A stretch of DNA of 64,000 nucleotides from an uncultured Candidatus Saccharibacteria bacterium (GCA_964504275.1 CAZDDV010000004.1:9908-73907); one strand, 5' to 3'. Counted from the stretch's first letter, positions 13,100 to 64,000 are shown. The notes: a model not told the origin generated them from the sequence alone. Translations and numbers: made by a program.

Positions 13100-13141
13100 T
13101 TCAGTCCCTTTCGTTGGACGCCCCAGTAGCCAGCTGAAAAG

Positions 13142-13168
13142 CAGATAAATTAGATTGTTATTTATCTG
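13142..13168. repeat. Perfect 9-bp inverted repeat CAGATAAAT-N9-ATTTATCTG upstream of the recombinase operon
   Basis: Read directly: 13142-13150 pairs with 13160-13168. Candidate operator or hairpin. Confidence 0.5.
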
Positions 13169-13717: not shown

Positions 13718-13771
13718 CTAAACCAGTTCCGCTTACTATGTTTTTAAGAAAATAGTTGTCAGAAAAGAAGA

Positions 13772-14947: not shown

Positions 14948-15073
14948 AATATACCCTTAAGTGTACACTGAATAATTGACAGATACATAGTAATATTGTT
15001 AATACTTATGGTTGAGTGCGATTATTTTGGGGTATCAGTATATGGTCCATATCCTTTATAATGAAATTAAGAT

Positions 15074-16222: not shown

Positions 16223-17391
16223 TAACGACATTGTTGGCAAAAGAAACAGGTAAAACAATTGGGGATGTAATTGAAGGTTTTGAGTATAACGAGTATGAAG
16301 GCAAAGGACTCTTCGGACTAAATGGAAAGCTTACTATCCAACCTGAATATCAGCGAAATTATATTTATGCAGACGGTAAAAGAGATGTGGCTGTTATCAA
16401 CAGTATCCTTAAGGGCTACCCTATAGGTCTATTGTATTTTAATAAGTCTGGCGTAGATACTTATGAAGTACTCGACGGGCAACAACGTATCACAAGTATA
16501 GGGCGATTCATAAATGATAAGTTTCCTTGGGTAGACTCTAATGGGCATGAACAGTTCTATAGTGGCATGGCGAGTAGTTTGCAGGAGAAGGTACTCAATA
16601 CATCCCTTCTTATTTACGTATGTGAAGGTGATGAGCCGGAAATTAAAGATTGGTTCAGGACTATAAATATCGCTGGAGTACCTCTTACGGAACAAGAGAT
16701 ATTAAACGCTGTCTATTCAGGACCATTCGTTACACTTGCAAGAGAAGAATTTAGTAACAGTCAGAATTCACTCGTGCAAAAATGGAATGCTTATATATCG
16801 GGAGACGTAAAGAGACAGGCATACTTAGAGTGTGCACTCGAGTGGGTAAGCCACGGTGCGATTGACCATTATATGAGTAAGCACCGACATGACAATGATA
16901 TTATTGAGCTAAAGACTCATTTTAATAATGTTATCGATTGGATCTCAACTGTATTTACAGATGTAGAAAGCGAAATGAAAGGTCTCGAGTGGGGTCGTCT
17001 CTTCGAGACTTATCACAATAATAATTATGACCCGCAAAAAGTATTAAATGAGTTACGAAAGTTACTTGGAAGTTTTGAAGTCAAGGACCGTAAGGGTGTG
17101 TATGAGTACATTCTAGGTGGATCAACAGACACTAAGTTGCTGAACATCCGTGTTTTTGATGAGCCCACTAAGAAAGTTGTGTACGCTGAGCAAACAAAGG
17201 CAGCTCAAACAAAAGGTATTTCGAATTGTTCTTACTGTTCTATCGGTCATGATGCGAATAAGGATAAGCTTTGGTCATTAAGCGATATGGACGCCGACCA
17301 TGTGTCTGCTTGGAGTAAGGGCGGCTCAACCGAAAAAGAGAACTGTGAAATGCTCTGCAAGCCGCACAACCGTGCTAAAGGCAATCGTTAG
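16219..17391 (+). CDS. DUF262 (ParB/GmrSD-like) domain protein with a C-terminal HNH nuclease
   Basis: EYQRNYIY...[11 protein letters not shown] (DUF262 DGQQR). C-terminal [32 protein letters not shown] (HNH). 4-nt ATGA overlap with the methyltransferase gene. Confidence 0.8.
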
Positions 17392-17402
17392 TCACCCCTC
17401 AC

Positions 17403-18275
17403 TTAAAAGTCATATTTATCTTGAAGCTGTTTGTATTTAATGTCGTGTGATTTATCAGTTGCTCTATAGTTTTTGATTTCCTCCCCTTTCTTGAGCCTCT
17501 GAGTCCTGTTGATATTTTGAAGATACTTTAGGAAGAATTTGTATGCCACATGAGAAGCCCGGACCGTTTCATATAAAGGTGCATCTAATCTAATTTCGAG
17601 ACTAATCTTTGGGTCTATTCTGGTGTTACTCATATTCCCTAAGACGGTTGAATGGGTATCGCTCGAAAGAAGAGAATAGACACTGCGATAATCGAATTGA
17701 GTTAATGTTTGGAAATCAGAATTTTTAGCGAGATTTGATTCGTCGATAGCCTTTAAGCGGCCTAAAAGTGGCTTGTATGCACTCAGATTTATATCGGGGT
17801 GTTTTTGGCCAAAACGTGTCAGCTCGGATTTCCGCCTCGCTATAGTATTAGTAATTGCTTTGTCGGATATGGTCGATTTCCAAGTTTCAGCATTGGGGTA
17901 TGCCGAACGAAGTCGCTGAACATCGCTCCATGTACTTAATTGCTGCTGCGACTCATTAGCAAACCTGATTTCTAGGTTTATATTTGATTTCTTTAGATTT
18001 ATGAAATCAAATTCAGCTAATGTCTCCCACATTGAGCGAACAATGATGTTGGCCACGTTACCCTGATTTGTTCGTGTTAACGCCAGGACGGCATCTGCCC
18101 TTTGGTACATAGCACTAAATGTGTTGTATCGTATAACTGTTTTAGCTTGGATATGATGATTAAATTTGGCTGAACCTATGAGTTCTTTGGAAAAGATGAG
18201 TAATTTTTCAAGGTCATCTATAGATTCTTCTTTCAGCTGATTGAGGTCTTTGACATACTCTGATTCATTTGACAT
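17403..18275 (-). CDS. Hypothetical protein (possibly DUF5677-like), convergent with the MTase/nuclease pair
   Basis: 290-aa ORF. IVRSMWETLAEFDFI and SSDTHSTVLG faintly recall DUF5677. No firm motif. Confidence 0.45.
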   Translation of the reverse strand: MSNESEYVKDLNQLKEESIDDLEKLLIFSKELIGSAKFNHHIQAKTVIRYNTFSAMYQRADAVLALTRTNQGNVANIIVRSMWETLAEFDFINLKKSNINLEIRFANESQQQLSTWSDVQRLRSAYPNAETWKSTISDKAITNTIARRKSELTRFGQKHPDINLSAYKPLLGRLKAIDESNLAKNSDFQTLTQFDYRSVYSLLSSDTHSTVLGNMSNTRIDPKISLEIRLDAPLYETVRASHVAYKFFLKYLQNINRTQRLKKGEEIKNYRATDKSHDIKYKQLQDKYDF

Positions 18276-48650: not shown

Positions 48651-48785
48651 ATGGCACGCCTACCAAATCCAGGTGGTGACAGTGACGAATGGGGAGATAT
48701 CCTCAATTCTTTTTTGGGTGTTGCTCATAACGACGACGGAACACTAAAATCACTCGATCCCGACGACGTCGGACTTGGTAACGTT
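48651..48785 (+). repeat. 135-bp near-identical direct repeat (copy 1) at the 5' end of the fibre paralogue
   Basis: 133/135 nt identical to 50960-51094 by direct comparison. Differences are at offsets 35 and 117. Confidence 0.85.
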
Positions 48786-50822
48786 AACAACACGAGTGAT
48801 ATAAACAAGCCGGTTTCTTCCGCCGCCCAAACTGCACTAGACCTGAAGCTGAGCAAAACCGGCGGTACGATGAGCGGCAATCTAAACATGGGCGGTAGCC
48901 AGGTTACTAACCTTGGGGTCACTACCAGTGATGCGGATGCTGCAACCAAGAGTTATGTAGACTCGATTAGCTTTGAGAGTATGGCAACTGCAAGCGGCGG
49001 CACAAATATGCGCGATGCAAATCTAGATGCGTGGTACGAAGATCTCGAGAACGCTACGACTCAATCGGTTGATCTTGTTGTGCTTGCGGATTCGATTGGC
49101 GAATTTGGCTGGATTGACGGCCTAGAGACGCAACTAGCCACTCGTTATAATGCCCGCCAAGATGTGATGACTCAGCCAATTGTCGGCTATCATACTGCGG
49201 GCAGTACTTCGTTTCATGCGATGCCGACCAGTACTGGATCGGATAGTGAATCTGGCGCAGCTGGTTTTTCTTCGACGCTCACTGATGGGCAGTCGTCGTC
49301 AATGACAGTCTATTGTGACGGTGTCATTGTGTTATGGACGGCCGGGACGGGCACACTAACCGTAAAGGATGGTGGCTCTGGTGGTTCAACGGTGGCTACT
49401 ATCGATACAAACACCGGAACAGGTTCGAGCAACATCACGTCGATTGATCTCACTACTCACGCCAGCCACAATATCTGGATTGGATCGACAGGGAATACCC
49501 ACCTCGAGGGCGTATATCCGACAGCTGGTAATCGAACTGTCGGTGTCAGGGTGTGGCGATTTGCACACGCAGGCTATAGTACTGCGGATTTCGTCGATAA
49601 TACTGACTATGGCCTGGACTTTATCGCAAAACTAAAGGTTCATACTGGGCGCGAACCGCATGTCATGGTAGCAACCGGATTCAATGACCCAGTGGTTAGC
49701 TATGAGGACGACTTAAACAATTTAATTACAGCCATAAAGGCGCGAACTAACGGGACACTTACCCGCTGGATTAACTGGGGGAGTTCCACGGGAAATGCTG
49801 GTGGCGTCGCTAAGCATGACATCGCACTTGATGTAGCCGAGCAGCAAAATATGGCCGTTATCGATGCATATCGAGCATTTGGCGATATTGGCTTAGGGGC
49901 GGATGCAAACAATCTGAGCCCAGATAATGCCCATCCGGGTGCCTCTGGCAGCGGTGTTATTATGACGCAAGCTTTGTTGGTGCTAGGAGGGGATCCCTTA
50001 GGTGCACTCAGCGGGGTGGTTACTTCATATCCATGGAATTATCGTGGCACCATTAGCACTACGCACGCAGTTCCGACCGGCAATTCGTTATGGTCGCCAA
50101 CTCTTGATCTTGGCAGTATCGACACCGCCCACTTTTTTGGCTACCCAATGTTCCACGTTAAAAATAGTAGTGGGGATGACTGGGGGCAAATTTCAATTGT
50201 TCCGGGACCAGCGGTTGAACAGTTGTATCCTGCATTCGATGCCGCGACAATAGCTTTTGGTCCTGGCGGCGATGGCGCTTTTGCTCCAACGTGGGATACG
50301 TATCTCTACCGCAGCGGTAGTGGTGAATTGTCATTGCGAGCGAGTAACACCACATATGCCAACCTTGTTACGAACCTAACTCGCAGTGGTGCTGGATCTC
50401 CAGAGACAAGCGTAGCTGCACCTATCGGCGCAACTTATAAAGACACCACCAACGGCACCAATTATATAAAAACGGTCGGAACTGGCAACACTGGCTGGCA
50501 AGCGGCTGGCGGAAACCGTGCCATTAATGCCCAGGTAGGAACCAGTTATACGCTGTTACTTGCCGACCAAGGAAAAGTTGTAACGCTTAATAACGGCTCA
50601 GAAATTACTTTAAACATACCAACCAACACAACGGCGGCTTTCCCAGTCGGGACAGAAATAGACATAATTCAGCTTGGTATCGGGCAGGTAGTAGTCACGC
50701 CCGCTGGAACCGTGACAGTAAACAGCACGCCAGGCCTAAAAATTTCTGCTCGATATGGCCGCGCCAAGTTGTTAAAAATTGCCACCAATGGATGGGTTCT
50801 TTCGGGTGACCTATCGGCTTAG
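48651..50822 (+). CDS. Tail-fibre/tail-spike-like protein with a central SGNH-esterase-like domain
   Basis: N-terminal MARLPNPGGDSDEWGDILNSFLGVAHNDDGTLK, the fibre motif GGTMSGNLNMGGSQVTNLG..DAATKSYVD, SGNH block I DLVVLADSIGE and block V DNAHPGASG, and the shared C-terminal module. Confidence 0.65.
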   Translation: MARLPNPGGDSDEWGDILNSFLGVAHNDDGTLKSLDPDDVGLGNVNNTSDINKPVSSAAQTALDLKLSKTGGTMSGNLNMGGSQVTNLGVTTSDADAATKSYVDSISFESMATASGGTNMRDANLDAWYEDLENATTQSVDLVVLADSIGEFGWIDGLETQLATRYNARQDVMTQPIVGYHTAGSTSFHAMPTSTGSDSESGAAGFSSTLTDGQSSSMTVYCDGVIVLWTAGTGTLTVKDGGSGGSTVATIDTNTGTGSSNITSIDLTTHASHNIWIGSTGNTHLEGVYPTAGNRTVGVRVWRFAHAGYSTADFVDNTDYGLDFIAKLKVHTGREPHVMVATGFNDPVVSYEDDLNNLITAIKARTNGTLTRWINWGSSTGNAGGVAKHDIALDVAEQQNMAVIDAYRAFGDIGLGADANNLSPDNAHPGASGSGVIMTQALLVLGGDPLGALSGVVTSYPWNYRGTISTTHAVPTGNSLWSPTLDLGSIDTAHFFGYPMFHVKNSSGDDWGQISIVPGPAVEQLYPAFDAATIAFGPGGDGAFAPTWDTYLYRSGSGELSLRASNTTYANLVTNLTRSGAGSPETSVAAPIGATYKDTTNGTNYIKTVGTGNTGWQAAGGNRAINAQVGTSYTLLLADQGKVVTLNNGSEITLNIPTNTTAAFPVGTEIDIIQLGIGQVVVTPAGTVTVNSTPGLKISARYGRAKLLKIATNGWVLSGDLSA

Positions 50823-50959: not shown

Positions 50960-51094
50960 ATGGCACGCCTACCAAATCCAGGTGGTGACAGTGGCGAATG
51001 GGGAGATATCCTCAATTCTTTTTTGGGTGTTGCTCATAACGACGACGGAACACTAAAATCACTCGATCCCGACGATGTCGGACTTGGTAACGTT
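50960..51094 (+). repeat. 135-bp near-identical direct repeat (copy 2)
   Basis: See 48651-48785. A second shared block of 48 nt with 1 mismatch lies at 50451-50498 and 52778-52825. Confidence 0.85.
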
Positions 51095-53146
51095 GATAAC
51101 ACCAGCGATGTAACAAAAAACTCTGCCGTCGCAACCCTAACAAACAAAACAATCGACGCAAACGGAACTGGCAACAGCATTACGAACCTAGAAACTGCTG
51201 ACTTTGCCACCAACGTCATCGATACCGACGACACGCTGACTGCTAACTCTGATACGCGTATCGCAACGCAGCAAGCAACCAAGGCGTATGTAGATAATTC
51301 CACGATTGCGGCCTTACCCGAACCTGGTGGCACGATGATGCAAGACCCGCAATTATCGGCATGGTTTAGCGATTTAGAAAACCCGCGCGATAACCCGATA
51401 GATCTTGTATATTTGGGTGACTCGATTCACGAAATCGCAAGCATTGCATTAGTGGTGCAAACACAGTTGGCAACTAGGTTTAACAGTGATCTTGGTGTGC
51501 CAACCGTAACACAGATTGGGTATCGCCGTGCATCATCTGGTGGTTGGGGTCCAATGGACACAATTGGCGGAACAAGCAGTACTGACGTCAGTGGTTTTGG
51601 TGGATACCATTGCACGATGACCAATGGTCAATCTTGTGCGCACACCGCAACGTGTGATGGCGTGCTTGTGGTATGGCGCGAGAACACCGGCACATTAACG
51701 ATCAAAGATGGTGGTTCTGGCGGCACGACAATCGGCACAATTGACACGACAACCGGTAATGGCTGGAGCAATGTCAGTAGTTTTGATTTCGGTACTCTTG
51801 CTAGTCGTGAAATTTGGATTGGGTCAACTGGTAATACGACACTTGAGGGTATTTTTGTTACGGTCGGTAACTTAGATGCCGGTATTCGCGTGTGGGACGG
51901 TACAAATGCCGGTACAGCGGTAGAGCATTTTGCAAATGATAGTTCGTGGGGTATTGATCTTATCGCCGGGATTAAGGCGCTAACTGGCCGAGAAGTTCAT
52001 TATTTCTTGGCGCCAAGCTTCAATACGGCCGAAGTAGACTACCAGTCCGAAATGGAACAGCTTATTGACAGTATTCAGGCAGTGAGCAGCGGCTCGGGTA
52101 TTATCTGGTCGCCATGGCTAAACCCGTCAGTCGGAAAAGAGCTGGGTCGAGGCAACATTGCTCGTGCGATTGGAGCAGACAAAGGCTTGGCGGTCATTGA
52201 CGCCGGCCGGGCCTTTGGTGACATTTCAGCGATTGGCGACGCCAATAATTTGAGCGGCGACGGCGCACATCCGAGTACAAACGGCGCCGCCGTGCTCGCA
52301 CTGCACGAATTAATGGTGTTAACCGGTGATCCGCTTGGCACGCTCGCAGCTGCGATCCCGATGGGTTATTACGACTACACGGGCACATTTACTGGCCCAA
52401 CTACGGGTGCCCATACTGGAAACTGGAAGGTGGACGGTGGTGACAACGGAAGCTTAGAGGGTACATCGGTATTTGGATATCCATATATCGGGGTTAAGGT
52501 TGACGACGACGACCTGGTCCAGCAAGTTTTAATTGCACCAAGCTCAACAATGAGTGCTCTAACTGCCGGTGCAATTACGAATGCGGTTATTGCGCTCGGC
52601 GTTGGCGGTGGAACAGCCCAAGATGTATTTTTGATGCGAACCGCGGCGGGCGAGCTGTCAATACGAGCATCAGCAACAACCTATGCAAATGTAGTAACGA
52701 ATCTTATCCGTAATGGCGCAGGCTCACCAGAAGCCAGCGTTACTGCACCAGTCGGGGCAAATTATACTGACACTACAAACGGCACCAATTATATAAAAAC
52801 GGTCGGAACCGGCAACACTGGCTGGGCATATGCAAGTGGCGTGCAGCCTATTAACGCGCAGGTTGCGAGCTATCCATTGGTGCTTGCAGATCAATTCAAG
52901 ATGGTGACAATGACGAGTGGCTCTGCGATGGATCTTACGGTGCCGTTGAATTCAAGCGTCGCATATCCAGTTGGTACGCGAATTGATATCACGCAGCTTG
53001 GAGCCGGTCAAGTTACTGTCGTTGCAACTGGTGGTGTCACGATCAATGCCACTCCAGGCCTTAAGTTAAGTGGGCAATATGCCGCTGCCTCACTCGTCAA
53101 AACTGCCACAAACACATGGCTACTGATTGGTAGTTTGTCAGCATGA
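50960..53146 (+). CDS. Tail-fibre/tail-spike-like protein with a central SGNH-esterase-like domain (paralogue)
   Basis: The first 45 aa are almost identical to the 48651 protein. SGNH block I DLVYLGDSIHE and block V DGAHPSTNG. Conserved C-terminal TNGTNYIKTVGTGNTGW...GSLSA. Confidence 0.65.
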   Translation: MARLPNPGGDSGEWGDILNSFLGVAHNDDGTLKSLDPDDVGLGNVDNTSDVTKNSAVATLTNKTIDANGTGNSITNLETADFATNVIDTDDTLTANSDTRIATQQATKAYVDNSTIAALPEPGGTMMQDPQLSAWFSDLENPRDNPIDLVYLGDSIHEIASIALVVQTQLATRFNSDLGVPTVTQIGYRRASSGGWGPMDTIGGTSSTDVSGFGGYHCTMTNGQSCAHTATCDGVLVVWRENTGTLTIKDGGSGGTTIGTIDTTTGNGWSNVSSFDFGTLASREIWIGSTGNTTLEGIFVTVGNLDAGIRVWDGTNAGTAVEHFANDSSWGIDLIAGIKALTGREVHYFLAPSFNTAEVDYQSEMEQLIDSIQAVSSGSGIIWSPWLNPSVGKELGRGNIARAIGADKGLAVIDAGRAFGDISAIGDANNLSGDGAHPSTNGAAVLALHELMVLTGDPLGTLAAAIPMGYYDYTGTFTGPTTGAHTGNWKVDGGDNGSLEGTSVFGYPYIGVKVDDDDLVQQVLIAPSSTMSALTAGAITNAVIALGVGGGTAQDVFLMRTAAGELSIRASATTYANVVTNLIRNGAGSPEASVTAPVGANYTDTTNGTNYIKTVGTGNTGWAYASGVQPINAQVASYPLVLADQFKMVTMTSGSAMDLTVPLNSSVAYPVGTRIDITQLGAGQVTVVATGGVTINATPGLKLSGQYAAASLVKTATNTWLLIGSLSA

Positions 53147-54589: not shown

Positions 54590-55570
54590 ATGTCAAAAGT
54601 GTCAAAAGCAAAACAAAAACAAGAATCAACTTTTAATCACGGTGCCAAAGGTCGCATTAAACGACTATATTTTACGGGATTTTCGATGGGAATGGCCGAT
54701 TTAGTGCCGGGTGTTTCTGGCGGAACGATTGCGTTTTTGTTCGGCATCTACGACGAATTGTTATTTAGCATTAAAGCCGTCACCGGCAAGGTACTTAAAC
54801 TTGCACTCAAGGGTAAATTGTTGCAGGCAATTGCAGCCGTACCTTTTGGTTTTTTGGTGCCGCTCATGCTAGGAATTTTGACGGCTATTTTTGGCATGGT
54901 TGGCATCGTTACCTATTTACTGGAGCAATATCCGGTGTTGATATGGTCGGCGTTTTTTGGGTTGGTGATTGGGTCGGCATACGTTGTTTCAAAGCGAGTA
55001 ACGCGGTGGAATTACCGCCGCATTTTGTTGTTGGTTCTCGGGTTCATTGTCACGTATGTTGTCGTCGGACTTCCAAATTTTAGTGCGAACGCGTCGCCGC
55101 TGGTTATTTTTGCAACCGGCGCGGTGGCGTCATGCGCAATGATTTTGCCGGGTATTTCGGGCTCACTTATTATGGTGATTTTGGGACATTACAAAAACGT
55201 GCTAACCGCTGTTGCTAGTCGCGACTTATTATTCTTGGCAATTTTTGCTTCGGGTATTGTTGTGGGGCTGGGGTTGTTTTCACGCTTACTAAGTTGGTTA
55301 TTGCGCGTTCATCGTAGCGGTACAATTGTGTTTCTCATTGGTGTTATGCTTGGGTCTCTGCGCAAAGTTTGGCCATGGCAAATTGATAATCTTGATAAAA
55401 CATTTTCGAACGTGGCACCTCAGTTTGGCTGGCAGTTTGTGTTCGCGCTGATTATTGCCGCCGCAAGTTTTGTGTTGGTCTGGAAGTTAGAACAACTTGG
55501 CTTTGCCAAAGATCACATTGATATCGACTCAAAAGATTTCAAAAAAGAACTCGCCGAGCAGCATGACTAA
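54590..55570 (+). CDS. DUF368 family polytopic membrane protein (putative polyprenyl-phosphate transporter family)
   Basis: Duplicated motifs [10 protein letters not shown] and [10 protein letters not shown] within about 8 TM helices are diagnostic of DUF368. Confidence 0.75.
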
Positions 55571-55916
55571 ACCACGAATTTACAGCATGAGTTTCGCCAA
55601 CGTATATCCGCTGTATATTGCCAAAGCCGAAAAAAAAGATCGCACCAAAGCAGAAGTAGACGAGATAATTTGTTGGTTGACCGGGCACAGTCAAAAAAGT
55701 TTAGAGACGGAGCTAGAAAACCAAACCGATTTTGAAACGTTTTTTGCAACTGCGCCAAAACTAAATCCTCTGCGACGTTTAATCACGGGCGTTATTTGCG
55801 GCATAAGGGTTGAGGAAATCAAAGAGCCAACCATGCAAGAAATCCGCTACCTCGACAAACTCATCGACGAGCTAGCGAAGGGCAAACCAATGCAAAAAAT
55901 CCTCCGCACAAAATAA
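55563..55916 (+). CDS. DUF2200 family protein
   Basis: Internal ATG at 55563. [37 protein letters not shown] matches DUF2200 as I recall it. Confidence 0.6.
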
Positions 55917-55935
55917 AAAATTCTAGCGTACTGGC

Positions 55936-56190
55936 TTAACTGCCGGCTTCTGACTCCATTTTTTCTAGGCGTGTGTAATAATCTGGGATTTCTTTTAAGT
56001 GAGCCCAAGCGATTTTTCCGGTCATCGTAAGGTCATTGTTAGTGACATTTGTTTCAGGATCTTGCGCGCCGTGTTCTAGCTCGATCGCTAAACCTTTTCG
56101 GAACTGCTCAATGTCATAAACACTAAAGTCTATGCCCAATTTTTCGCCAATGCTTTTTGCTTCATCTAATGTAAATTCTTTTTTAGTCAT
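55936..56190 (-). CDS. DUF5661-like small protein
   Basis: FTLDEAKSIGEKLGIDF...FRKGLAIELEHG...IAWAHLKEIPDYY is the pattern of the DUF5661 family. ATG at 56190 chosen. Confidence 0.55.
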   Translation of the reverse strand: MTKKEFTLDEAKSIGEKLGIDFSVYDIEQFRKGLAIELEHGAQDPETNVTNNDLTMTGKIAWAHLKEIPDYYTRLEKMESEAGS

Positions 56191-56241
56191 AACGTAACTA
56201 TAACACCGAAGCATCCGTATAATGGATTTAATCCGAGTTTA

Positions 56242-56262
56242 TCGTGGCTGGGGCGGTAGGAT
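56242..56262. repeat. Orphan 21-bp copy of the tRNA-Gln 3' end (distal att-like repeat)
   Basis: Exact match to 62531-62551. No remaining tRNA sequence is adjacent. Confidence 0.85.
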
Positions 56263-56435
56263 AATCGCACGACTGCAATCATGCTCGAAGCAAACTTCTG
56301 CGCGTAATCTTGCGACCGAACCTCGGCTTTGCCGAACAGTTCTCGGCATAACACACAAGCCAATATAAAAAGGCCTCAAACGAGACCTGTTTATATTGGC
56401 TGAGCATGCTGGTCTGGAACATAATTATAGATGAG

Positions 56436-56460
56436 AATGAGACAAATTAGACACTATAAA
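56436..56460 (+). repeat. 25-nt motif AATGAGACAAATTAGACACTATAAA (copy 1; promoter/operator-like)
   Basis: 23/25 identical to 58103-58127. It is preceded by CTGAGCATG..GGTCT (56400-56420), which also recurs at 57993-58013. Confidence 0.7.
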
Positions 56461-56474
56461 TGCAATCTATATAG

Positions 56475-56957
56475 TCAATTTGACTCGAAAGACTTTCTGA
56501 GTGCTTCTGCATCTATGCCTGGCGAGAAAGGCACATTCTGATAACTCACCAGAAGCGTCCACTTAACATCCTCAGATTTATGATAAGTGCTTGCCATCAT
56601 TGTCCCAAAATCACCATCACTATCCGTTGTACTAACATTGTAAAATAACACAGCAGTATTACTAGTTGGTTGTGAGAATTCAATGAATTTATAATAGCAG
56701 TCTCCCCATGGCTTAGAGTTCGTTGATAAATCAATAAATTGTGAACGTGAAATAGTTACCCAAAAACCTCCATCAGAGGGCATAAAAAGAAAGCCGCCAG
56801 GATATACATTTTTTGTAATGTAACTCCTTGCCATATTTTTTCCTGTTGCTCTCCAAAAACCACGTTCAATCTCAAATATCAGATTAAATGTTGGGTTTCC
56901 CTCGAGGATTGTTGGAATCTCATAATGATCTTTTAGGTTTTCATCTATATTTGCCAC
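56475..56957 (-). CDS. Hypothetical protein (island cargo)
   Basis: 160-aa ORF with no recognisable motif. Confidence 0.5.
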   Translation of the reverse strand: MANIDENLKDHYEIPTILEGNPTFNLIFEIERGFWRATGKNMARSYITKNVYPGGFLFMPSDGGFWVTISRSQFIDLSTNSKPWGDCYYKFIEFSQPTSNTAVLFYNVSTTDSDGDFGTMMASTYHKSEDVKWTLLVSYQNVPFSPGIDAEALRKSFESN

Positions 56958-56997
56958 AGACTCGACTCCTTAGTTTAATCTAAACATTAATTAATCA

Positions 56998-57684
56998 TCA
57001 TCTGATTCTCACTAATATTTCCTTAAATGCATCAACTTTTACATCTATTTTTGTTAAAAGTTCCTCTCGGTTTAGACCGTAGGAATTTGGATGTTTCTTT
57101 CTTGATAAGACATGTGCTTTTACGTTATTTTCAAACCTCTTTGCGCCTTCTATCTGATTATCGAGAATTATTTTCGAGATATTTTGATCACTTATTATAA
57201 CGATGTCATAGATTGCTTTGTTGGAGATCTTATAGTTTACCTTGGTCTTGTTTCTACCTTCGATAAGTTGGCAATTCTTCCCTCTTACGATATCTAGTAA
57301 ATATCCATCTTTTTTACAAAGCTCAATTAAACCATCTCTTTTATATCCCAAATCCATTTTGAGGTCTATGAAAGTTGTAATTTCATTATTCTTTATAATA
57401 ACAATATCCGGTATAAATCTTTTAGTATCATTTTCTATTACTATGGATTGGTCGACATAAATTTTCTCGATTGTGTCATCGTTTTCGGCAAGATACTTTG
57501 CAAATAAATCTTCAGCTAGTGGAGAAATTGATCTCGACCTACCTCTGTAAATTTTATCTTTTGGGTAAAAGGGAATACGTGCTAAGTGGTACTGGTTGAT
57601 AATTTCTTTGATAAAATCAGTTGGACTTATAATTTCCTCCTCACGCTTCGTCAATACTACTGATAAGCACTTTGCGTTGTCCAT
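56998..57684 (-). CDS. PD-(D/E)xK restriction-endonuclease-like protein (island cargo)
   Basis: RFIPDIVIIKNNEITTFIDLKMDLG gives the D...(D/E)xK core. Start is uncertain: ATG 57684 overlaps the upstream gene by 44 nt, and a GAGGAGG lies right after that gene's stop. Confidence 0.5.
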   Translation of the reverse strand: MDNAKCLSVVLTKREEEIISPTDFIKEIINQYHLARIPFYPKDKIYRGRSRSISPLAEDLFAKYLAENDDTIEKIYVDQSIVIENDTKRFIPDIVIIKNNEITTFIDLKMDLGYKRDGLIELCKKDGYLLDIVRGKNCQLIEGRNKTKVNYKISNKAIYDIVIISDQNISKIILDNQIEGAKRFENNVKAHVLSRKKHPNSYGLNREELLTKIDVKVDAFKEILVRIR

Positions 57685-57916
57685 TTTCAATAGCTGGCCC
57701 AATATAGCCCAACTGTTCCATGGTATCAATAAGCCTTGCGGCTCTTGCGTATCCAATCCTTAATTGTCTCTGCAGTAAGCTCGGGCTTACCGAGCCGGCT
57801 TCAATAGCTACTTTAACGGCTTCTTTCAAAACATCGTCTTGACTATCGGTAACTAGCACTTCGTCATATTTATTTAAATCATGTCCGCAGTTCGGACAGA
57901 AATGTATTTTACTCAT
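57641..57916 (-). CDS. Zinc-ribbon plus FtsK-gamma winged-helix DNA-binding protein
   Basis: N-terminal FCPNCGHDL. The C-terminal SVSPSLLQRQLRIGYARAARLIDTMEQLGYIGPAIENGQRKVL is an unmistakable FtsK gamma-domain pattern. Confidence 0.7.
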   Translation of the reverse strand: MSKIHFCPNCGHDLNKYDEVLVTDSQDDVLKEAVKVAIEAGSVSPSLLQRQLRIGYARAARLIDTMEQLGYIGPAIENGQRKVLISSIDEA

Positions 57917-58102
57917 GTTATAAATTATAACTCATTCTCGCTTAATAAATGAACTCAGTTCTGCCCAAAGCGCTTGGACAAGACCCGAAAGTCTGAGCAT
58001 GTGGGTCTAGACCTGAAAGTCCGGCTTTATGTTTCACTAAACGTGACTCGAGTCATTGGGCGCTCGGGTCTAGATAGTTTTCACAGGGTAGATTAGCCAA
58101 AA

Positions 58103-58127
58103 AATGAGACAAATGGGACACTATAAA
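58103..58127 (+). repeat. 25-nt motif AATGAGACAAATGGGACACTATAAA (copy 2), 40 nt upstream of the 55-aa ORF
   Basis: See 56436-56460. The nearby GGGTCTAGA is itself duplicated (58003-58011 and 58066-58074). Confidence 0.7.
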
Positions 58128-58166
58128 AAAGGGTGTACCATTTTAGCTTAACAAACGGAGATAAAT

Positions 58167-58334
58167 ATGGCATACATATCTCAAAACCAGAAAGACGATG
58201 ATCGTGAATTGACTAAAGAAGAGCTTTCTAACCTAACAGGTTTTTTTGATGTACTTATTCAGATGGACTTGGAGCAAAAACGGAAAGCTAAACATGCAGA
58301 GGAAAAGAAGTTTCAAATCGAGCAAGTTGATTAA
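58167..58334 (+). CDS. Small element-associated protein with motif NLTGFFDVLIQMDLEQK
   Basis: Below the track cutoff. My translation gives MAYISQNQKDDDRELTKEELSNLTGFFDVLIQMDLEQKRKAKHAEEKKFQIEQVD. GGAG RBS. It is homologous to the 2966..3214 product. Confidence 0.6.
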   Translation: MAYISQNQKDDDRELTKEELSNLTGFFDVLIQMDLEQKRKAKHAEEKKFQIEQVD

Positions 58335-58401
58335 GGTTTTTATAACTGTGCTCTAGCTATAAATATACTTCTCAGCACATCGAATTATTTATCCCAGATG
58401 T

Positions 58402-58980
58402 TTAGGAATTAGAGGTATTTGGTGCGTTTAGATTATGCGCCGACGCAGGTGCTCTTTGGCACATATTTATATTGAGGTAATTCAAACTTTCGAAAAATTC
58501 TAGTCGAGATTTCAGATCACTTTCAGCCTCTTCGCGGACTGCCTCGACTTCCGCAATTCGGGTTACATGATTGATTTTATTTGGGAGAAACCCGTTATAG
58601 TGCTGGCCCGTTATGTAGTATGCATGTTTTGCTTTTAGCAACTCAACGTATTGAGGGAGTTGGACTTTGATACCATGAATATACGATGGGTACTTATCAA
58701 CTTCACCTTTCATAGAGTTGTTTTTTAATAACTTGAGCTCAATCGCTATCCTACAACTCTTGTAGATAACGTGAAAATCTAGATAGCCGTTACCTGACCC
58801 TGACTCCGCAATAAACGTAACGTCATCAAAGTGGTCGAAGAACGCTAACCCCATAGCACGAAACTTTCTGCCTATAACGGGCTCTGTCTCAGGTTTTAAC
58901 GGCATCCCTTTCCATGCATCTTTCCAGCCATCCCTCAAGCTGAATTCATCGTCGACGACTTTAAGCAGTTTTTCCACCAT
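58402..58980 (-). CDS. PD-(D/E)xK nuclease-like protein (island cargo); possibly 5'-truncated
   Basis: YLDFHVIYKSCRIAIELKLL gives D...ExK. The frame stays open a further 75 codons upstream (to 59205) with no ATG, GTG or TTG. Confidence 0.5.
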   Translation of the reverse strand: MVEKLLKVVDDEFSLRDGWKDAWKGMPLKPETEPVIGRKFRAMGLAFFDHFDDVTFIAESGSGNGYLDFHVIYKSCRIAIELKLLKNNSMKGEVDKYPSYIHGIKVQLPQYVELLKAKHAYYITGQHYNGFLPNKINHVTRIAEVEAVREEAESDLKSRLEFFESLNYLNINMCQRAPASAHNLNAPNTSNS

Positions 58981-59212
58981 CGCTTTTAATCCATTGCAGT
59001 CTTCAATTGGCTTGAGGTCTAGGTCCTCGTACTCATCAAAGTAATCCGAGAATGTTTTGTCTGCGAGTAAATTGAGGGGATCATCGGCAAAGTCATATGG
59101 ATCTGTCTCTTCCTCTAGAAGTTTGAGATACCGGAAGTGTACAGCTTTTTCTTCTTTGAAGACGTTACGAATTTTTGCGGTACCTTGTACCTTGAAAAGA
59201 AAGGATTAACGG

Positions 59213-59554
59213 ATGAGAATAACTAATGTCGATATGAAAAAACGCTCAGGCACAAGCTTTAAAGGCTTTGTATATGCTACTTATGACCAGCTTCTAGCCT
59301 GCTTTGGAGATCCGGCAATAAATATGGACAACGATAAAACTGATGCAGAGTGGGTAGTTGATACACAGCACGGCGTAGCCACGATCTATAACTACAAAGA
59401 CGGTAAATCATATCTTGGTGATGCTGGGTTGGAAATGTATAAGATTTGCGAATGGCACGTAGGCGGTAAAAATAACGAAAGCTATGATTGGATAAAAACC
59501 CAATTATTTAAACCTATTGGTTTATTGCATGGCTCTGACGAACAAGTGTTATAA
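59213..59554 (+). CDS. Hypothetical small phage-type protein
   Basis: 113-aa ORF with GAAAGGA RBS. The FKGFVYATYDQLLACFGDP...AEWVV...ATIYNYKDG...WHVGG pattern recalls uncharacterised phage proteins. Confidence 0.5.
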   Translation: MRITNVDMKKRSGTSFKGFVYATYDQLLACFGDPAINMDNDKTDAEWVVDTQHGVATIYNYKDGKSYLGDAGLEMYKICEWHVGGKNNESYDWIKTQLFKPIGLLHGSDEQVL

Positions 59555-60437
59555 CGTAAGGTATTTCGTCAAGGTTAGTTAGCGTTACCTCATAGTCACC
59601 ATTACCCCAGTGACCAATATGTACTGGCTTTTCTAGATCCCTCGCGATACCCTGTGGATCAGTTAGTTCGCCTGATTTAACATTCAAGAACAATTTCAAT
59701 TTGTTCTTTTTGAACACAACATCAACAAAATTTCGTGTCATTTTATAGGCAACATACAACTTTTTTGGCTCCTCAGTAATGTTTTGGTCTAGGGCAAGTA
59801 TTTCTTCTTTTAGTGCTTTGAATAATTCTTGCGTATTATTGTCTGCTTGAGCAAGATGCTCTTCAAGCGTGTATGTTTCCTGAAGTTTTCCATGCTTAGC
59901 TGCGTCGCCGTTGCTAAACTTTGGCTTATCTGAAATCTTTACTTTCTGATAGTTCTCTTTATCAAGCACCAACATATCGTCTTCATAGAGCTTATATTTG
60001 TAGAGCTCAATATTAATGGGCAAAAGGTCGGCTGTATCGGCATCGAATTTATTGTAATTTTCGGCTACACAAATAACACGAGGTGCGTTCCATTGAATTG
60101 CAGTCATAACATTCATTTCATTACATAACTTCTCAAAACTATCCTTGTGATCCAATAACCACCGGAGGTAAGACAAGCCCTGGTTAATTACACTGTCATT
60201 TTGGCCTTTTTTGTACTCGATAATACATGGGTTACCCTCCCCGTCGATACCGAGAGTATCCATGCGACCTCCGAAGCTAGTTGAGTATTCATGCGCCAAG
60301 AAGGTTACATTTAGCAATTCATCGAGGTTTTCCTCAAAAATTTTCTGAACTTCTCGCTCAAGCGTCTTCTTGCCATTACTTACTACGACAGGATTTAATC
60401 GAGAGACTTTTTGATTCTTTATCTTAAATAAACTCAT
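59514..60437 (-). CDS. NucS/DUF91-like PD-(D/E)xK nuclease domain fused to a DUF5655-like C-terminal domain
   Basis: GRMDTLGIDGEGNPCIIEYKKGQNDSVINQGLSYLRWL (D..ExK..Q..Y). The C-terminal YVAYKMTRNFVDVV is typical of DUF5655. ATG at 60437 (MSLFKI) preferred. Confidence 0.6.
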   Translation of the reverse strand: MSLFKIKNQKVSRLNPVVVSNGKKTLEREVQKIFEENLDELLNVTFLAHEYSTSFGGRMDTLGIDGEGNPCIIEYKKGQNDSVINQGLSYLRWLLDHKDSFEKLCNEMNVMTAIQWNAPRVICVAENYNKFDADTADLLPINIELYKYKLYEDDMLVLDKENYQKVKISDKPKFSNGDAAKHGKLQETYTLEEHLAQADNNTQELFKALKEEILALDQNITEEPKKLYVAYKMTRNFVDVVFKKNKLKLFLNVKSGELTDPQGIARDLEKPVHIGHWGNGDYEVTLTNLDEIPYVITLVRQSHAINQ

Positions 60438-60501
60438 ATCTGTAATTATACGCATTATGTACTAGCTTAACCAAAAGCATTGCGGTACTGTTGTGCTTGC
60501 C

Positions 60502-61761
60502 ATGGAGTCAATAATAGATACAAAGTACTGCCTATACGCTCGCAAATCTAGTAAGCAAGATGAACGTCAAGCAATGTCGATAGACTCGCAAGTTAAAGAA
60601 ATGCTTACCTTGGCAGAACGTGACGGCCTGAATATAGTAGAGACCAAACATGAAAGTCATTCAGCAAAAGAATCTGGGAAGCGGCCAGTATTCAACGAAC
60701 TTCTAGCTGACTTGAGAAACGGCAAATTCAACGGCGTGCTTACGTGGGCACCCGACAGGCTAAGCAGGAATGCAGGGGATCTAGGATCGTTAGTAGATCT
60801 AATGGACAACAACATGCTTCATCAGATCCGGACGTATGGCCAAAGCTTCAGTAATACTCCGAATGAAAAGTTTTTACTAATGATCCTATGCTCTCAAGCA
60901 AAGCTAGAGAATGACAACAGGGGTGTAAATGTAAAACGCGGAATTAGAGCGAAGTGCGAAATGGGGTGGCGACCATGCATGCCGCCTCTTGGCTACTTCA
61001 CGCGTGCTGCAACTGGTGGTGCTAGAGATGTGATAATTGACGAAGAACGCGCACCCTATATTAAACAGATGTTTGAAATGTCGGCAGACGGTAAAAGTGG
61101 CCGCCACATAAAAAGATGGCTAGAAGACAACAAAGTTCGTACAAGGGGTGACAAGGTCATACCACTTAGTATGATATACCGGATACTTTCTAGCGAATTC
61201 TATTACGGAGAATTCGAATACCCTAAAGGGAGTGGACAGTGGTATAAAGGCAATCACGAGCCGATGGTTATAAAAGAGCTTTTCTTAAGAGCCAGAGAGC
61301 AAGCCAAAGTACCAATTAAAGGCAAATGGGGTGCAAAACAGTTTCCGTTCAAGCAATTTTTGAAATGCTACTCATGCGGATCAACCATAGTCGGCGAAGA
61401 GAAAATCCGGAAATACAAAAACGGAAAAACACATCGTTTTGTTTATTATCACTGCTCTAGACAGGTAGAGCTTAAATGTAAGGAACCATACGCCAGAGAA
61501 AAGGACATTATAGAGTCTCTAAGAACGATGTGTAATGACCTAATAACTGATACTGCTGGGTTAGAACCAGGACTGCAAGATGCAATAGACAAGTTCACTA
61601 GAATGATGAGCGCAACACATAAAGGCTACGGCAAAAAGAACATGATAGGAGGCTATATTAAATATGTGCTGCAGGAAGGCTCAGACTTCGAGAAAACTAG
61701 GCTAGTGAGGAACTTGGATCTTGAGCTTCGTCTACATAACAGAACAGTAAACCGTGTTTAG
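60502..61761 (+). CDS. Large serine recombinase/integrase of the tRNA-Gln island
   Basis: CLYARKSSKQDERQAMSIDSQ (catalytic Ser), WAPDRLSRNAGD, recombinase domain, and zinc ribbon CYSCGS...YYHCS. Confidence 0.9.
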   Translation: MESIIDTKYCLYARKSSKQDERQAMSIDSQVKEMLTLAERDGLNIVETKHESHSAKESGKRPVFNELLADLRNGKFNGVLTWAPDRLSRNAGDLGSLVDLMDNNMLHQIRTYGQSFSNTPNEKFLLMILCSQAKLENDNRGVNVKRGIRAKCEMGWRPCMPPLGYFTRAATGGARDVIIDEERAPYIKQMFEMSADGKSGRHIKRWLEDNKVRTRGDKVIPLSMIYRILSSEFYYGEFEYPKGSGQWYKGNHEPMVIKELFLRAREQAKVPIKGKWGAKQFPFKQFLKCYSCGSTIVGEEKIRKYKNGKTHRFVYYHCSRQVELKCKEPYAREKDIIESLRTMCNDLITDTAGLEPGLQDAIDKFTRMMSATHKGYGKKNMIGGYIKYVLQEGSDFEKTRLVRNLDLELRLHNRTVNRV

Positions 61762-62474
61762 TTCGAAGCTTTTGCAGCTCTTACCATTATTGATTTTTCT
61801 AAGGAGCTATCAAAATCTCCTCGATTATGAACAAAAACGTCCAAATTGCTTTCTAATGAAAGACGGCTCATAACTACATCATCTCTTGAATCAACCTTTA
61901 CCCAAAACTTATACAAACCTGGTAAGTAGGCCTCGTAATAAACGATCCCTTTGATCCGTGTTTTAGCAGGAAACATTATTCCACCCACTTCCTTGCCTGT
62001 GCTAAATTTGCTAAAGATGACTGTGTAGTCATTCGGTTTACCACTTGAGTTTGCGAATATCAACTCACGCATCTTGTTTTCATGCTGAACTCCAAGACTA
62101 ACACCAGAAAATTCACTTCTTGATGTTATTGAAGCTCTCCATAGATATGACACACAGAATAGCTTTAACTTTTTTTGATCTATACCACTTATAGTCCAAC
62201 CTAAGCCTGAAGGATGATTCACAAGCTTGCTGTCTGTTATAAATTTGATGCAATAATCATCATATTCGCCAATTTTATTATCACAATTTGCACAAAGTAT
62301 TCCTGAATCATAAGAACCTACAGGGGCACGGCGTTTTTTATCAAAGTCTGTACCGACAATTAATAAATTGCCGTACTCATCTTTAGACAGTAGCTTCAAT
62401 AGTCCGCGAGGGAATATGTGTGCATCACATTTGTTAGTCGAATCAATAAGTATTCCGCACAGCTTACATTTCAT
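61758..62474 (-). CDS. Hypothetical Cys-cluster (HNH/zinc-finger-like) protein
   Basis: The track ORF extends to 62765 across the tRNA gene. I truncate it to the ATG at 62474 (GAGGA RBS). MKCKLCGILIDSTNKCDAHIFPRGL...CANCDNKIG suggests a zinc/HNH-like N-terminus. Confidence 0.5.
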   Translation of the reverse strand: MKCKLCGILIDSTNKCDAHIFPRGLLKLLSKDEYGNLLIVGTDFDKKRRAPVGSYDSGILCANCDNKIGEYDDYCIKFITDSKLVNHPSGLGWTISGIDQKKLKLFCVSYLWRASITSRSEFSGVSLGVQHENKMRELIFANSSGKPNDYTVIFSKFSTGKEVGGIMFPAKTRIKGIVYYEAYLPGLYKFWVKVDSRDDVVMSRLSLESNLDVFVHNRGDFDSSLEKSIMVRAAKASN

Positions 62475-62533
62475 ATGTGTCCTCGATTTATACCAAAATA
62501 TACACCCCTTCGGGTCATGTTTGGTGCAAGTCG

Positions 62534-62608
62534 TGGCTGGGGCGGTAGGATTCGAACCTACGCATACTGGTACCAGAAACCAGTGCCTTACCACTTGGCG
62601 ACGCCCCA
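62534..62608 (-). tRNA. tRNA-Gln(CTG)
   Basis: The reverse complement reads TGGGGCG-TC-GCCAAGTGGTAAGGC-A-CTGGT-TTCTGGT-ACCAG-TATGC-GTAGG-TTCGAAT-CCTAC-CGCCCCA-G-CCA. U1:A72 and G73 fit Gln identity. Confidence 0.9.
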
Positions 62609-62766
62609 TTGCTGATATGTAACAGGGGAGATTATAGCAAACAATCAATATTGCTGCCAGTACTGCGCATCTATTTGCGGACACAGAATGCTGCGTAAAA
62701 AGCATGTGCTTGCAAAATAATCCAGGACCATTACTATACGTGTAATAATGAATATAAGTAGTCAAA

Positions 62767-63540
62767 ATGACGCGACCTGAAATTACACCAGAAAATTACG
62801 AAGCAATTTACGCGCATTTCCGCGACTTCGAACCGAATCAACGTATTCAGCAACTGGGATTTACTGTGATGCATACGCTGTATCGTAGCGAAATGCACTA
62901 TGTGGGCGATGCAGAAGAAACTATTCCGGCTCATTTGCAGAGCGGGGGAAGTATTCTAATTTCGCCGTATCACCAGTCCTTAGCCGACACACCAACTTTG
63001 GCTGGCATTGGGTGCGAGAAGCCGTTTATCACTTTGAAAGGTACTACGAACATTCCAGCCAAGGCCGAAATGTTTGGTTGGCCGTTAGTGGGAAGATTTG
63101 TTCCGCACATGCGAGCACATCCTACATTCCGCGGTGCAGATTTTGCGCCAGACGACGCCGGTCAGGCGCTTCGCAAAGAAGTTGGCCATGCGGTTGTTGC
63201 ATTAAACATTGATAATATTGACGCGGGTGGAAATGATGCGATGTTTGGGCGGGGCACGCGTGATAAAACTCGCAGTGGTCAGGCTGGTCCACTTCGAAAA
63301 GGTATCGGTCGTATCTCGACTGGTGTTAAAAACCCGGAAAATTTACTGGTGGTCACAGCTGGAATTGCGTATCGTTGGTACCACTTGAGGTTGCGGCCAC
63401 TCGTCGTGATTAATGAGCCGTTTTGTCCTGCTGGTATGACTGTCGAAGAGGTTGTCGAAGAAGCCGAAATACGCACTCAAGAAGCAACAGATTTGGCGTT
63501 TTTATTTGCCGGGCAAGCAAAACGACTAGTTAAACCATAA
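62767..63540 (+). CDS. Lysophospholipid (PlsC-like) acyltransferase
   Basis: The HX4D motif in SPYHQSLADTP and the later GTRD/PLRKG blocks are typical of the 1-acyl-glycerol-3-phosphate acyltransferase family. Confidence 0.65.
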   Translation: MTRPEITPENYEAIYAHFRDFEPNQRIQQLGFTVMHTLYRSEMHYVGDAEETIPAHLQSGGSILISPYHQSLADTPTLAGIGCEKPFITLKGTTNIPAKAEMFGWPLVGRFVPHMRAHPTFRGADFAPDDAGQALRKEVGHAVVALNIDNIDAGGNDAMFGRGTRDKTRSGQAGPLRKGIGRISTGVKNPENLLVVTAGIAYRWYHLRLRPLVVINEPFCPAGMTVEEVVEEAEIRTQEATDLAFLFAGQAKRLVKP

Positions 63541-63578
63541 TGCCCACTAGCCCAAAAGAGCTGTTACAATAAAAGGTA

Positions 63579-64000
63579 ATGATTGAAATACTGCACAGCA
63601 CAGGGCGTGCGCCAACGCCCGTCCGCCAAGAGAGCGCCAAGCCCGGCTCGTGGGTTTACGTTGTCGAACCAACTGACCAAGAGTTGGACCAATTAGTCGC
63701 CGATTACAAACTCGATTTAGATTTGCTAATCGACGCACTGGATATCTACGAAACTCCCCGAGTAGAACGCGATGGCAAAACCACGTACGTGTTCGCGCGC
63801 TACAGTCACCCAGAAGGTCGTGACATTGCCACCGAGCCACTGCTGATTATTTATCAAGACGATTATATTATTACGATCCAGCGGTCCGACACCAAGATTT
63901 TGTCTAGGCTAGCTGACGGCGTCGAACCTATTTCTACCACGCAGCGCACCAAAACATTTTTGCAAATCCTCGGCGCAATAAATTATTCGTACGAAAAAGA
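63579..64000 (+). CDS. CorA-like magnesium/cobalt transporter, N-terminal part (runs off the right edge)
   Basis: Not in the track because it is open-ended. My translation gives MIEILHSTGRAP...SWVYVVEPTDQELDQLVADYKLDLDLLIDALD...TEPLLIIYQDDYIITIQR, resembling the CorA cytoplasmic domain. Confidence 0.55.
   Translation, partial: MIEILHSTGRAPTPVRQESAKPGSWVYVVEPTDQELDQLVADYKLDLDLLIDALDIYETPRVERDGKTTYVFARYSHPEGRDIATEPLLIIYQDDYIITIQRSDTKILSRLADGVEPISTTQRTKTFLQILGAINYSYEK

Follow-up and report, generated by a model that had tools for sequence, protein, structure and literature searches.

A strain-variable 6.1-kb island carrying a large serine recombinase at the 3' end of a tRNA-Gln gene in an uncultured Candidatus Saccharibacteria bacterium

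Tyrosine integrases are the textbook case of integration into tRNA genes, and serine integrases are known for protein-coding genes; the target of phiRSM is tRNA-Ser. In the survey of Mageeney et al. (2020, PMC7192596), t(m)RNA genes were used by 44.5% of the elements with a tyrosine integrase versus 4.9% (14/297) of those with a serine integrase (S-Int), and the authors regarded the use of t(m)RNA genes by S-Int elements as previously unreported and in need of proof. Durrant et al. (2022, PMC10083194) catalogued thousands of large serine recombinases (LSRs) and left tRNA unmentioned, and an LSR was found in 27 of 937 tycheposons (Hackl et al., bioRxiv 10.1101/2020.12.28.424599). In the 64,000-nucleotide stretch of DNA analyzed here (GCA_964504275.1, CAZDDV010000004.1:9908-73907), referred to throughout as the window, an integrative element of 6.1 kb (positions 56403 to 62539) lies at the extreme 3' end of a tRNA-Gln(CUG) gene and was probably inserted there by its own LSR. 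All named relatives of the LigA protein of the window at 70 to 73% identity belong to Saccharimonadales or Saccharimonadia, and the host is, on such sequence grounds, a Candidatus Saccharimonadales bacterium of the candidate phyla radiation. Our literature search found nothing specific on this LSR family in Saccharibacteria or Patescibacteria, although its coverage was incomplete and does not prove absence.

Contigs carrying the same locus with or without the island were retrieved from other assemblies by exact look-up of two flanking proteins. Three contigs from independent assemblies, L001 (ENA ERZ505514), L002 (JGI 3300020219) and L004 (Logan SRR6448204), were 99.86 to 99.89% identical to the flanks of the window and lacked the island, thus representing the uninterrupted DUF5661-tRNA-Gln junction that a preliminary description of the locus had proposed to look for in relatives. 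All three follow the window up to position 56402 and pick it up again at 62534, with a 6-bp overlap, TGGCTG. The insert therefore comprises 6,137 bp (56403 to 62539 or, equivalently, 56397 to 62533) and is flanked by a direct repeat of 6 bp, TGGCTG, at 56397-56402 and 62534-62539. The reverse complement of this repeat, CAGCCA, corresponds to the final six nucleotides of the tRNA, namely, two acceptor-stem nucleotides, the discriminator and CCA, and the tRNA-Gln sequence is unchanged between the empty-site contigs and the window. The occupied state was also assembled independently, in two JGI contigs that match the window at 100% over 57053-63611 (L003) and at 99.95% over 54908-56976 (L008). 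The strain polymorphism is thus precise, with three empty and two occupied contigs at identities of at least 99.86% and the tRNA intact in both states. We conclude that this is a 6.1-kb mobile, strain-variable island that sits at the last six bases of tRNA-Gln and was recently mobile. The near-identical empty-site strains support what the preliminary description had proposed in general terms, site-specific integration at the tRNA-Gln 3' end that left the tRNA intact.

The boundaries given in that description, 56242 to 62551, had been drawn from a perfect 21-bp direct repeat, TCGTGGCTGGGGCGGTAGGAT, and these did not hold. The repeat itself was confirmed: the window holds exactly two copies of it, the left one at 56242-56262 and the right one at 62531-62551, and 100 shuffles gave no match. 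Read in the direction of the tRNA, the right copy consists of ATCCTACCGCCCCAGCCA, the last 18 nucleotides of the tRNA, followed by the three trailer nucleotides CGA, and it covers the last two T-loop nucleotides, the 3' strands of the T stem and of the acceptor stem, the discriminator and the encoded CCA. However, L001, L002 and L004 keep the left copy, the 134 bp that follow it and the complete tRNA. Since these contigs are continuous with the window up to 56402 and resume at 62534, the whole segment 56242-56396 is chromosomal, and the proposed left edge was 155 bp too far out. The 21-bp repeat is hence incidental to the island, its left copy being an older orphan tRNA 3' fragment located 134 bp beyond the insertion point. 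A terminator scan placed the original tRNA terminator on the minus strand at 56371-56388, which is now 6.1 kb from the tRNA gene. The idea that the orphan is a decayed tRNA copy was rejected because an alignment of the 134 bp preceding it to the tRNA body scored at the mean of the shuffled sequences. Searching for the 21-mer elsewhere gave five matches in metagenome contigs, in a collection that apparently did not include the source metagenomes. Four were tRNA-Gln genes, of which three belong to unrelated organisms of high GC content and the remaining one (L091) lies at another LSR-type junction, and the fifth (L093) was a non-tRNA chance match; the scan is uninformative on the ancestral state.

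Other elements of the preliminary description stood, including the intact minus-strand tRNA-Gln(CUG), the lower G+C content of the island (39.0%, compared to 44.5% in the remaining window and about 48% in the adjacent flanks) and the nature of the flanking genes, which encode DUF5661, DUF2200 and VCA0040-like proteins on one side and CorA and, by a weak match, an acyltransferase on the other. The recombinase gene, described as lying some 0.8 kb from the tRNA, ends 773 bp away from it. Its product matched the Pfam families Resolvase (PF00239, 1.9e-20, residues 14 to 158), Recombinase (PF07508, 3.5e-14) and, marginally below the cut-off, Zn_ribbon_recom (PF13408, 2.6e-5, 24.9 bits for a cut-off of 25.3). 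It also matched an integrase family of PHROG (4e-62), and the closest NCBIfam models were those of the SCCmec Ccr recombinases and XisF. Among 32 homologues, the stretch Y15-A16-R17-K18-S19 was nearly invariant and the four cysteines C292, C295, C321 and C329 were invariant. An AlphaFold (AF2) model built from these homologues, with a mean predicted local distance difference test score (pLDDT) of 76, had a long helix in addition to the catalytic domain; its recombinase domain was helical and its zinc ribbon was broken up by helices, residues 336 to 406 being inserted between zinc-ribbon strands 290-321 and 412-421 (pLDDT of about 80 to 87). Foldseek returned full-length matches to the SPbeta, Bxb1, PhiC31 and Listeria LI integrases with a probability of 1.00, and the fold of the catalytic domain matched TP901-1 and Sin.

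The enzyme is thus an LSR, with resolvase-type catalytic, recombinase and zinc-ribbon domains, and it is apparently intact, as the family-invariant residues are present and the predicted fold is complete. No Phage_integrase match, indicative of a tyrosine integrase, was found among the island open reading frames (ORFs) of at least 80 aa. An identity of 6 bp between attP and attB fits a serine recombinase rather than the long blocks of tyrosine-integrase tRNA islands. Of the "classic signature" of tRNA integration that had been claimed for this locus, the tRNA left intact remained, while the tyrosine integrase and the long attP/attB block that such a signature implies did not.

Homologues of the LSR number in the thousands at 65 to 91% identity, and at least 588 relatives were found in GTDB (one genome per species, alignment A1 as the query). 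We counted tRNA adjacency in the best 80 of these at least 588 loci, almost all of which come from Patescibacteria (Saccharibacteria, Peregrinibacteria, Parcubacteria, Levybacteria, Berkelbacteria and others). A tRNA gene lay downstream of the LSR gene in 51 of the 80 loci, on the opposite strand and hence convergent in 51/51, and this tRNA was mostly tRNA-Gln, otherwise tRNA-Ser, -Asn, -Glu, -Lys, -Asp, -Pro or -Trp. In 38 loci it was located within 4 kb; 25 of these had tRNA-Gln (CUG or UUG) and the remainder Ser, Asn, Glu, Lys, Asp or Pro. Upstream of the LSR, any tRNA was present in just 2/80 loci. The same pattern was seen in 63 IMG/VR loci whose LSRs were 45 to 57% identical.

The ends of these elements are conserved as well. 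Directly after the tRNA CCA, the tRNA-proximal end, or P' arm, reads xGAxxxGCACCAAAxxTGACC in tRNA orientation in L009, L011, L014, L020, L026, L064 and L091. At the distal end, ten elements share a layout in which the core is followed by 8 nucleotides, by GGTCTGGWAC and, 2 to 17 nucleotides further, by tandem TGAGACA repeats, the core being in each case the last six nucleotides of the local tRNA (TGGCTG for Gln and TGGCGG for the element at tRNA-Ser). Exactly this layout is found at window positions 56397-56460 and likewise in L162, an 11.8-kb element in the tRNA-Gln(UUG) gene of a different host. The LSR of L162 is 91% identical to that of the island, its copy of the ORF next to the tRNA (o238) is 88% identical and its P and P' ends are near identical, and its own two junctions again have just TGGCTG in common. 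The three nucleotides CGA, by which the 21-mer extends beyond CCA, are the start of the P' arm in the window, L014, L020, L091 and L162; their match could be due to chance (1 in 64) or to mimicry. In each of 27 related loci, the TGAGACA motif was on the LSR strand, and no convincing copy was seen on the reverse strand; it could serve as an operator, promoter or accessory site. In its tandem form, AATGAGACAAATGAGACAcTATAAA, it was noticed near the distal ends of L017, L030, L031, L035, L043, L044, L046, L047, L051, L059, L067, L069, L072, L082, L086 and L162 and in 11 IMG/VR loci, and in three of these loci (L035, L044 and L047) it precedes the LSR start by about 220 bp. The coordinates of all features are given in Table 1.

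Table 1. Features of the tRNA-Gln locus and of the island, in window coordinates
Feature	Position	Strand	Basis
Orphan 21-mer (18 nt of the tRNA-Gln 3' end at 56245-56262, plus TCG); older scar	56242..56262		Present in all 3 empty-site contigs
Chromosomal spacer, 134 bp, in empty and occupied sites; holds the original tRNA terminator	56263..56396		Identical in L001, L002, L004
Distal junction: core TGGCTG (56397-56402), then P arm AGCATGCT-GGTCTGGAAC	56397..56420		Empty-site identity stops at 56402
Conserved terminal motif AATGAGACAAATTAGACACTATAAA, tandem TGAGACA-like repeats	56436..56460	+	27 related loci; overlaps promoter-like site 56448-56475
160-aa protein, cargo	56475..56957	-	ORF list; called in L008; no family match
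~228-aa protein, cargo	56998..57684	-	ORF list; L003 gene call; ~50% homologues in L013, L153
Zinc-ribbon and FtsK-gamma (winged-helix DNA-binding) protein, 91 aa, cargo	57641..57916	-	FtsK_gamma 8.5e-25; PHROG FtsK/SpoIIIE-like
DUF8371 protein, 192 aa, cargo	58402..58980	-	ORF list; PF28130 recorded for identical L003 gene
o113, 113 aa	59213..59554	+	tblastn matches in L009, L076, L121, L145, L154
DUF5655 protein, 313 aa, PADLOC candidate defense PDC-S18	59514..60455	-	PADLOC PDLC04946 4.7e-94, residues 4-310
LSR, 422 aa from GTG (419 aa from ATG 60502), sole island recombinase	60493..61761	+	Pfam, PHROG, AF2
o238, 238-aa Cys-rich protein	61758..62474	-	ORF list; 238 aa called in L003; 88% homologue at same position in L162
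P' arm, tRNA-proximal element end, + strand ...GGGTCATGTTTGGTGCAAGTCG directly before TGGCTG	62474..62533		~90% identical over 60 bp to L162 end
tRNA-proximal core copy TGGCTG	62534..62539		Identity to empty L001 resumes exactly here; same core in L162 and related tRNA-Gln elements
tRNA-Gln(CUG), intact, CCA encoded, integration target (B arm of attB)	62534..62608	-	ARAGORN (ctg) and Rfam RF00005, 63.4 bits

Taken together, these data suggest how the LSR would act. It would pair attP of the circular element, made up of the P' arm, TGGCTG and the P arm, with an attB formed by the T arm and acceptor end of the tRNA (B arm), the same six nucleotides and the tRNA trailer (B' arm). The predicted attP, ...GGTGCAAGTCG-TGGCTG-AGCATGCTGG..., was obtained by joining window positions 62500-62539 to 56403-56440 (about 60 bp), and the empty-site attB was taken from positions 9740-9800 of L001. 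Serine recombinases typically make a 2-bp staggered cut, and the LSR would make it somewhere within CAGCCA; the crossover must lie inside the core at 62534-62539. Since the element carries the same six bases, the tRNA would be restored exactly and the insert would be flanked by just a 6-bp direct repeat; with an attP/attB identity of 6 bp, the element would supply at most the last six nucleotides of the tRNA. Excision would require a recombination directionality factor, and passage from cell to cell might occur via a helper phage or DNA uptake.

Compared in register with the T arm of the tRNA (GGTCTGGAAC versus GGATTCGAAC), the P arm was 37% identical, versus 16 to 30% when the two were slid against each other, a result obtained with seven elements that are mutually related. 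This resemblance suggests that the LSR may recognize the T arm, and GGTTCGAA is the candidate stretch of interest for such recognition. It is conceivable, though rather doubtful, that the LSR clade across Patescibacteria is specialized in tRNA genes, with the T arm and acceptor/CCA end as the attB half-site, a crossover in the last six nucleotides and a degenerate mimic of the T arm in attP. Such a specialization would explain how the clade has switched between tRNAs for Gln, Ser, Asn, Glu, Lys and Asp. If so, much of the gene flux in bacteria of the candidate phyla radiation would be carried by modular elements with defense cargo, satellite-like members included, and an integrase/attP/attB toolkit would be at hand for organisms with almost no genetic tools.

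The window is part of a 77-kb NCBI metagenome-assembled contig, and one further contig, L005, breaks exactly at the tRNA, both of which could point to an assembly or binning artifact, i.e., a chimeric join in a contig of a metagenome-assembled genome. However, both junctions were reproduced at 99.95 to 100% identity in the independent contigs L003 and L008, and a break at this place is expected where occupied and empty states coexist in one sample, making an artifact barely credible. Very improbable, too, is a classical tRNA island of 6.3 kb, in which a 21-bp block would be shared by attP and attB, the left 21-mer would be the displaced tRNA 3' end and excision would leave the tRNA directly followed by CGATAAACTCGG. 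Such an island would account for a perfect direct repeat with one copy within the tRNA and an AT-richer segment between the copies, and 18- to 24-bp repeats do flank LSR-bearing segments in L016 and L043. For the window island, this model is refuted by the retention of the left 21-mer and the next 134 bp in all three empty contigs; moreover, no tyrosine integrase was found in the island, and the conserved ends of the family (P arm and TGAGACA motif) start at 56403 and not at 56263. We also regard as unlikely that a larger prophage or satellite left the island behind as an immobile remnant and that the polymorphism arose by homologous exchange or by deletion at the 6-bp microhomology rather than through the LSR. 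The absence of transfer, replication and packaging genes from the island, the terminase, repressor-like and ParB-methylase genes in its relatives of 12 to 13 kb and the failure to find a circle junction would all be in line with a remnant, but both conserved ends and an apparently intact LSR have been retained, and the break points match the ends of independent elements to the base, which random deletion would not achieve.

Several observations weigh against insertion by the LSR, the reading that we favor. The empty sites may be ancestral rather than products of excision, and the activity of the recombinase is a prediction from its sequence. No convincing dyad symmetry was detected in the reconstructed attP and attB for any possible central dinucleotide, with at most 6 of 25 symmetric positions in attP for any center inside the core. 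No excised-circle junction was found in JGI metagenome contigs, nor in IMG/VR with two degenerate attP or P-arm patterns, and no directionality factor was pinpointed in the element, o113 being a mere guess. In addition, attP-like P'-TGGCTG-P junctions occur inside chromosomal contigs (L013:12725, L022:11399, L059:7413 and L081:15507) and indicate that a single tRNA-Gln can be followed by two tandem elements or remnants. An LSR is not expected to use attL as a target, and such tandem arrays are thus not predicted by the standard rules for these enzymes. Finally, the identity blocks may be longer in part of the LSR family, or such sites may be subject to other processes, because 18- to 27-bp repeats of tRNA 3' ends are present in L016, L043, L024, L075 and L012.

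The latter repeats correspond to orphan tRNA 3' fragments of 18 to 27 nucleotides at or near LSR elements (L016:4321-4338, L043:2143-2166, L024:11394-11420, L075:11447-11468 and L012:8987 and 9826), some lying at the far end of the LSR segment and others abutting the P' arm like a truncated attL. The fragments of the window and of L016 cease to match the tRNA at the same position of the T loop. The 18-bp repeat of L016, which thus resembles the window in its breakpoint, encloses only the LSR and a KAP NTPase (1,050 aa). The proposal that the orphan is the scar of a tyrosine-integrase element was left without support, as the L016 repeat encloses no other recombinase. Such orphan fragments may have been left by earlier integrations of relatives that share a longer stretch with the tRNA, or they may stem from rearrangements within tandem arrays. 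In L081, a 2.6-kb element adjoins one of about 13 kb.

Apart from the LSR, the island encodes few proteins that could be classified, five being without assignable function. Pfam, PHROG and NCBIfam searches revealed no transfer, replication, packaging (terS/terL or capsid) or repressor modules in it, and homologues of its cargo in other loci were limited to o113 and the ~228-aa ORF. The DUF5655 protein, PDC-S18, is a candidate anti-phage defense protein by its PADLOC assignment; it also matched Pfam DUF5655 (1.1e-12) and gave a weak NucS-like nuclease signal (NCBIfam NucS, 0.004). DUF5655 or DUF4268 genes occupy the same LSR-adjacent position in L157, L158 and L160. The o113 family comprises 178 proteins without Pfam domains, and o113 recurs 0.9 to 1.9 kb upstream of related LSR genes. 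A module of a terminase (small or large subunit), an o113 homologue, DUF5655 or DUF4268 and the LSR was found at L157:4399-8548, L158:5350-8571 and L160:3936-8972; the L157 copy of the LSR consists of two separate ORFs and probably represents a pseudogene. The protein encoded next to the tRNA, o238, had no Pfam, NCBIfam or PDB match and matched only unknown-function families of PHROG, and the PDB sequence search was uninformative on function for both PDC-S18 and o238. The o238 gene is on the same strand as the tRNA, with its start 56 bp beyond the tRNA 3' end. The terminator scan found no terminator between the two, and the sole promoter-like site nearby is that of the tRNA (62660-62631), from which o238 could be expressed by read-through.

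Two delimited relatives of 12 to 13 kb, L033 and L046, carry genes for terminase-like and S24- or M78-type repressor-like proteins, a ParB-methylase, methyltransferases and a SMODS/SLATT pair resembling a cyclic-oligonucleotide-based antiphage signaling system (CBASS), and no capsid or tail gene was recognized in either. In L046 (12.4 kb), positions 1610-3432 hold the CBASS-like pair (a SMODS and AGS_C cyclase with a SLATT_4 effector), two Dam-type methylases and the S24 repressor-like gene. The cargo of L162 consists of an MmeI-like restriction-modification gene, an SNF2/NgoFVII-like gene and a ParB-methylase. By annotation, defense cargo is common in the family. Since relatives carry terminase, repressor-like and defense genes and the island keeps the ends and the LSR, the family looks like one of modular cargo and satellite-like elements with conserved ends, a conserved LSR (joined by o238 in the closest relative) and exchangeable cargo, of which the window island would be a minimal member.

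Among described systems, the island enzyme shares its domain architecture and full-length fold with the LSRs of PhiC31, Bxb1, A118/LI, TP901-1, SPbeta (SprA) and SCCmec (CcrAB), including a zinc ribbon with a helical insertion, and the element resembles theirs in its short attP/attB identity and in having the integrase gene near one end. In contrast to these systems, the target is a tRNA 3' end and not a protein-coding gene, the att sites lack evident dyad symmetry and the clade is almost confined to Patescibacteria; compared to the solved LSRs, the enzyme is small (about 420 aa) and only about 15 to 20% identical. With the Islander-type tRNA islands of tyrosine integrases (sublocation classes of Williams 2002), the locus has in common the intact, restored tRNA at one end, the location of the island downstream of its 3' end, the lower G+C content, the accessory and defense cargo and the empty sites in related strains. 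It differs by the absence of a tyrosine integrase and by an identity block of 6 bp instead of about 15 to 50 bp, and the displaced-fragment rule fails, given that the fragment at 56245-56262 is present in empty sites, 134 bp outside the insert. The Prochlorococcus tycheposons are similar in kind: they too are small, carry cargo or look like satellites, occur at tRNA genes and come with arrays and partial tRNA fragments, and PICI-like tycheposons carry terminase genes, as do relatives of the window island. They belong, however, to another host phylum, the LSR is the exception there and the rule here, and no replication module was seen in the island. More generally, the island lacks the packaging, repressor and replication modules of satellites like the phage-inducible chromosomal islands (PICI) or tycheposons, whereas terminase-like, S24/M78 repressor-like or ParB-methylase genes are found in its relatives L033, L046, L157, L158 and L160. 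Elements of the phiRSM type also have serine-family site-specific integrases (phiRSM group cited in PMC7192596), but these are resolvase-sized "S-core" enzymes without recombinase and zinc-ribbon domains, while the island encodes a full LSR.

An island at a tRNA gene is in itself ordinary; less so are the class of the enzyme, the 6-bp core at the CCA end, the breadth of the clade and the potential as a genetic tool. The locus offers an empty/occupied pair, precise to the base, for an LSR at a tRNA 3' end, and it is backed by a family of hundreds of members in which an LSR clade is consistently found against tRNA 3' ends, with a 6-bp core and conserved arms. It is probably an LSR-driven element at a tRNA 3' end in bacteria of the candidate phyla radiation, and targeting of tRNA genes by an LSR clade is little documented. 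For Saccharimonadales and other Patescibacteria, mobile elements and defense islands are poorly described and genetic tools are few, and a compact LSR with defined attP and attB could serve to integrate DNA into these hosts. The locus also holds a methodological warning, in that a perfect tRNA-derived direct repeat beside a recombinase can mislead; mapping rules based on displaced tRNA fragments would put the island boundary 155 bp too far out.

Two other regions of the window deserve mention. Positions 11329-18275 form a second defense island of low G+C content (about 39%), with no adjacent tRNA. It has a serine recombinase of its own (516 aa, Resolvase domain, weakly XisF-like), the neighbors of which encode a Shedu SduA protein, an EcoRI-like adenine methylase, a GmrSD-N/HNH nuclease and a DUF5677 protein. 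Closer to the tRNA-Gln island, two adjacent genes at 48651-50822 and 50960-53146 encode proteins of 723 and 728 aa that are partial paralogues with no Pfam domain recorded; the genes share a 160-bp segment at their 5' ends that is 95% identical and an internal 112-bp segment that is 84 to 85% identical.

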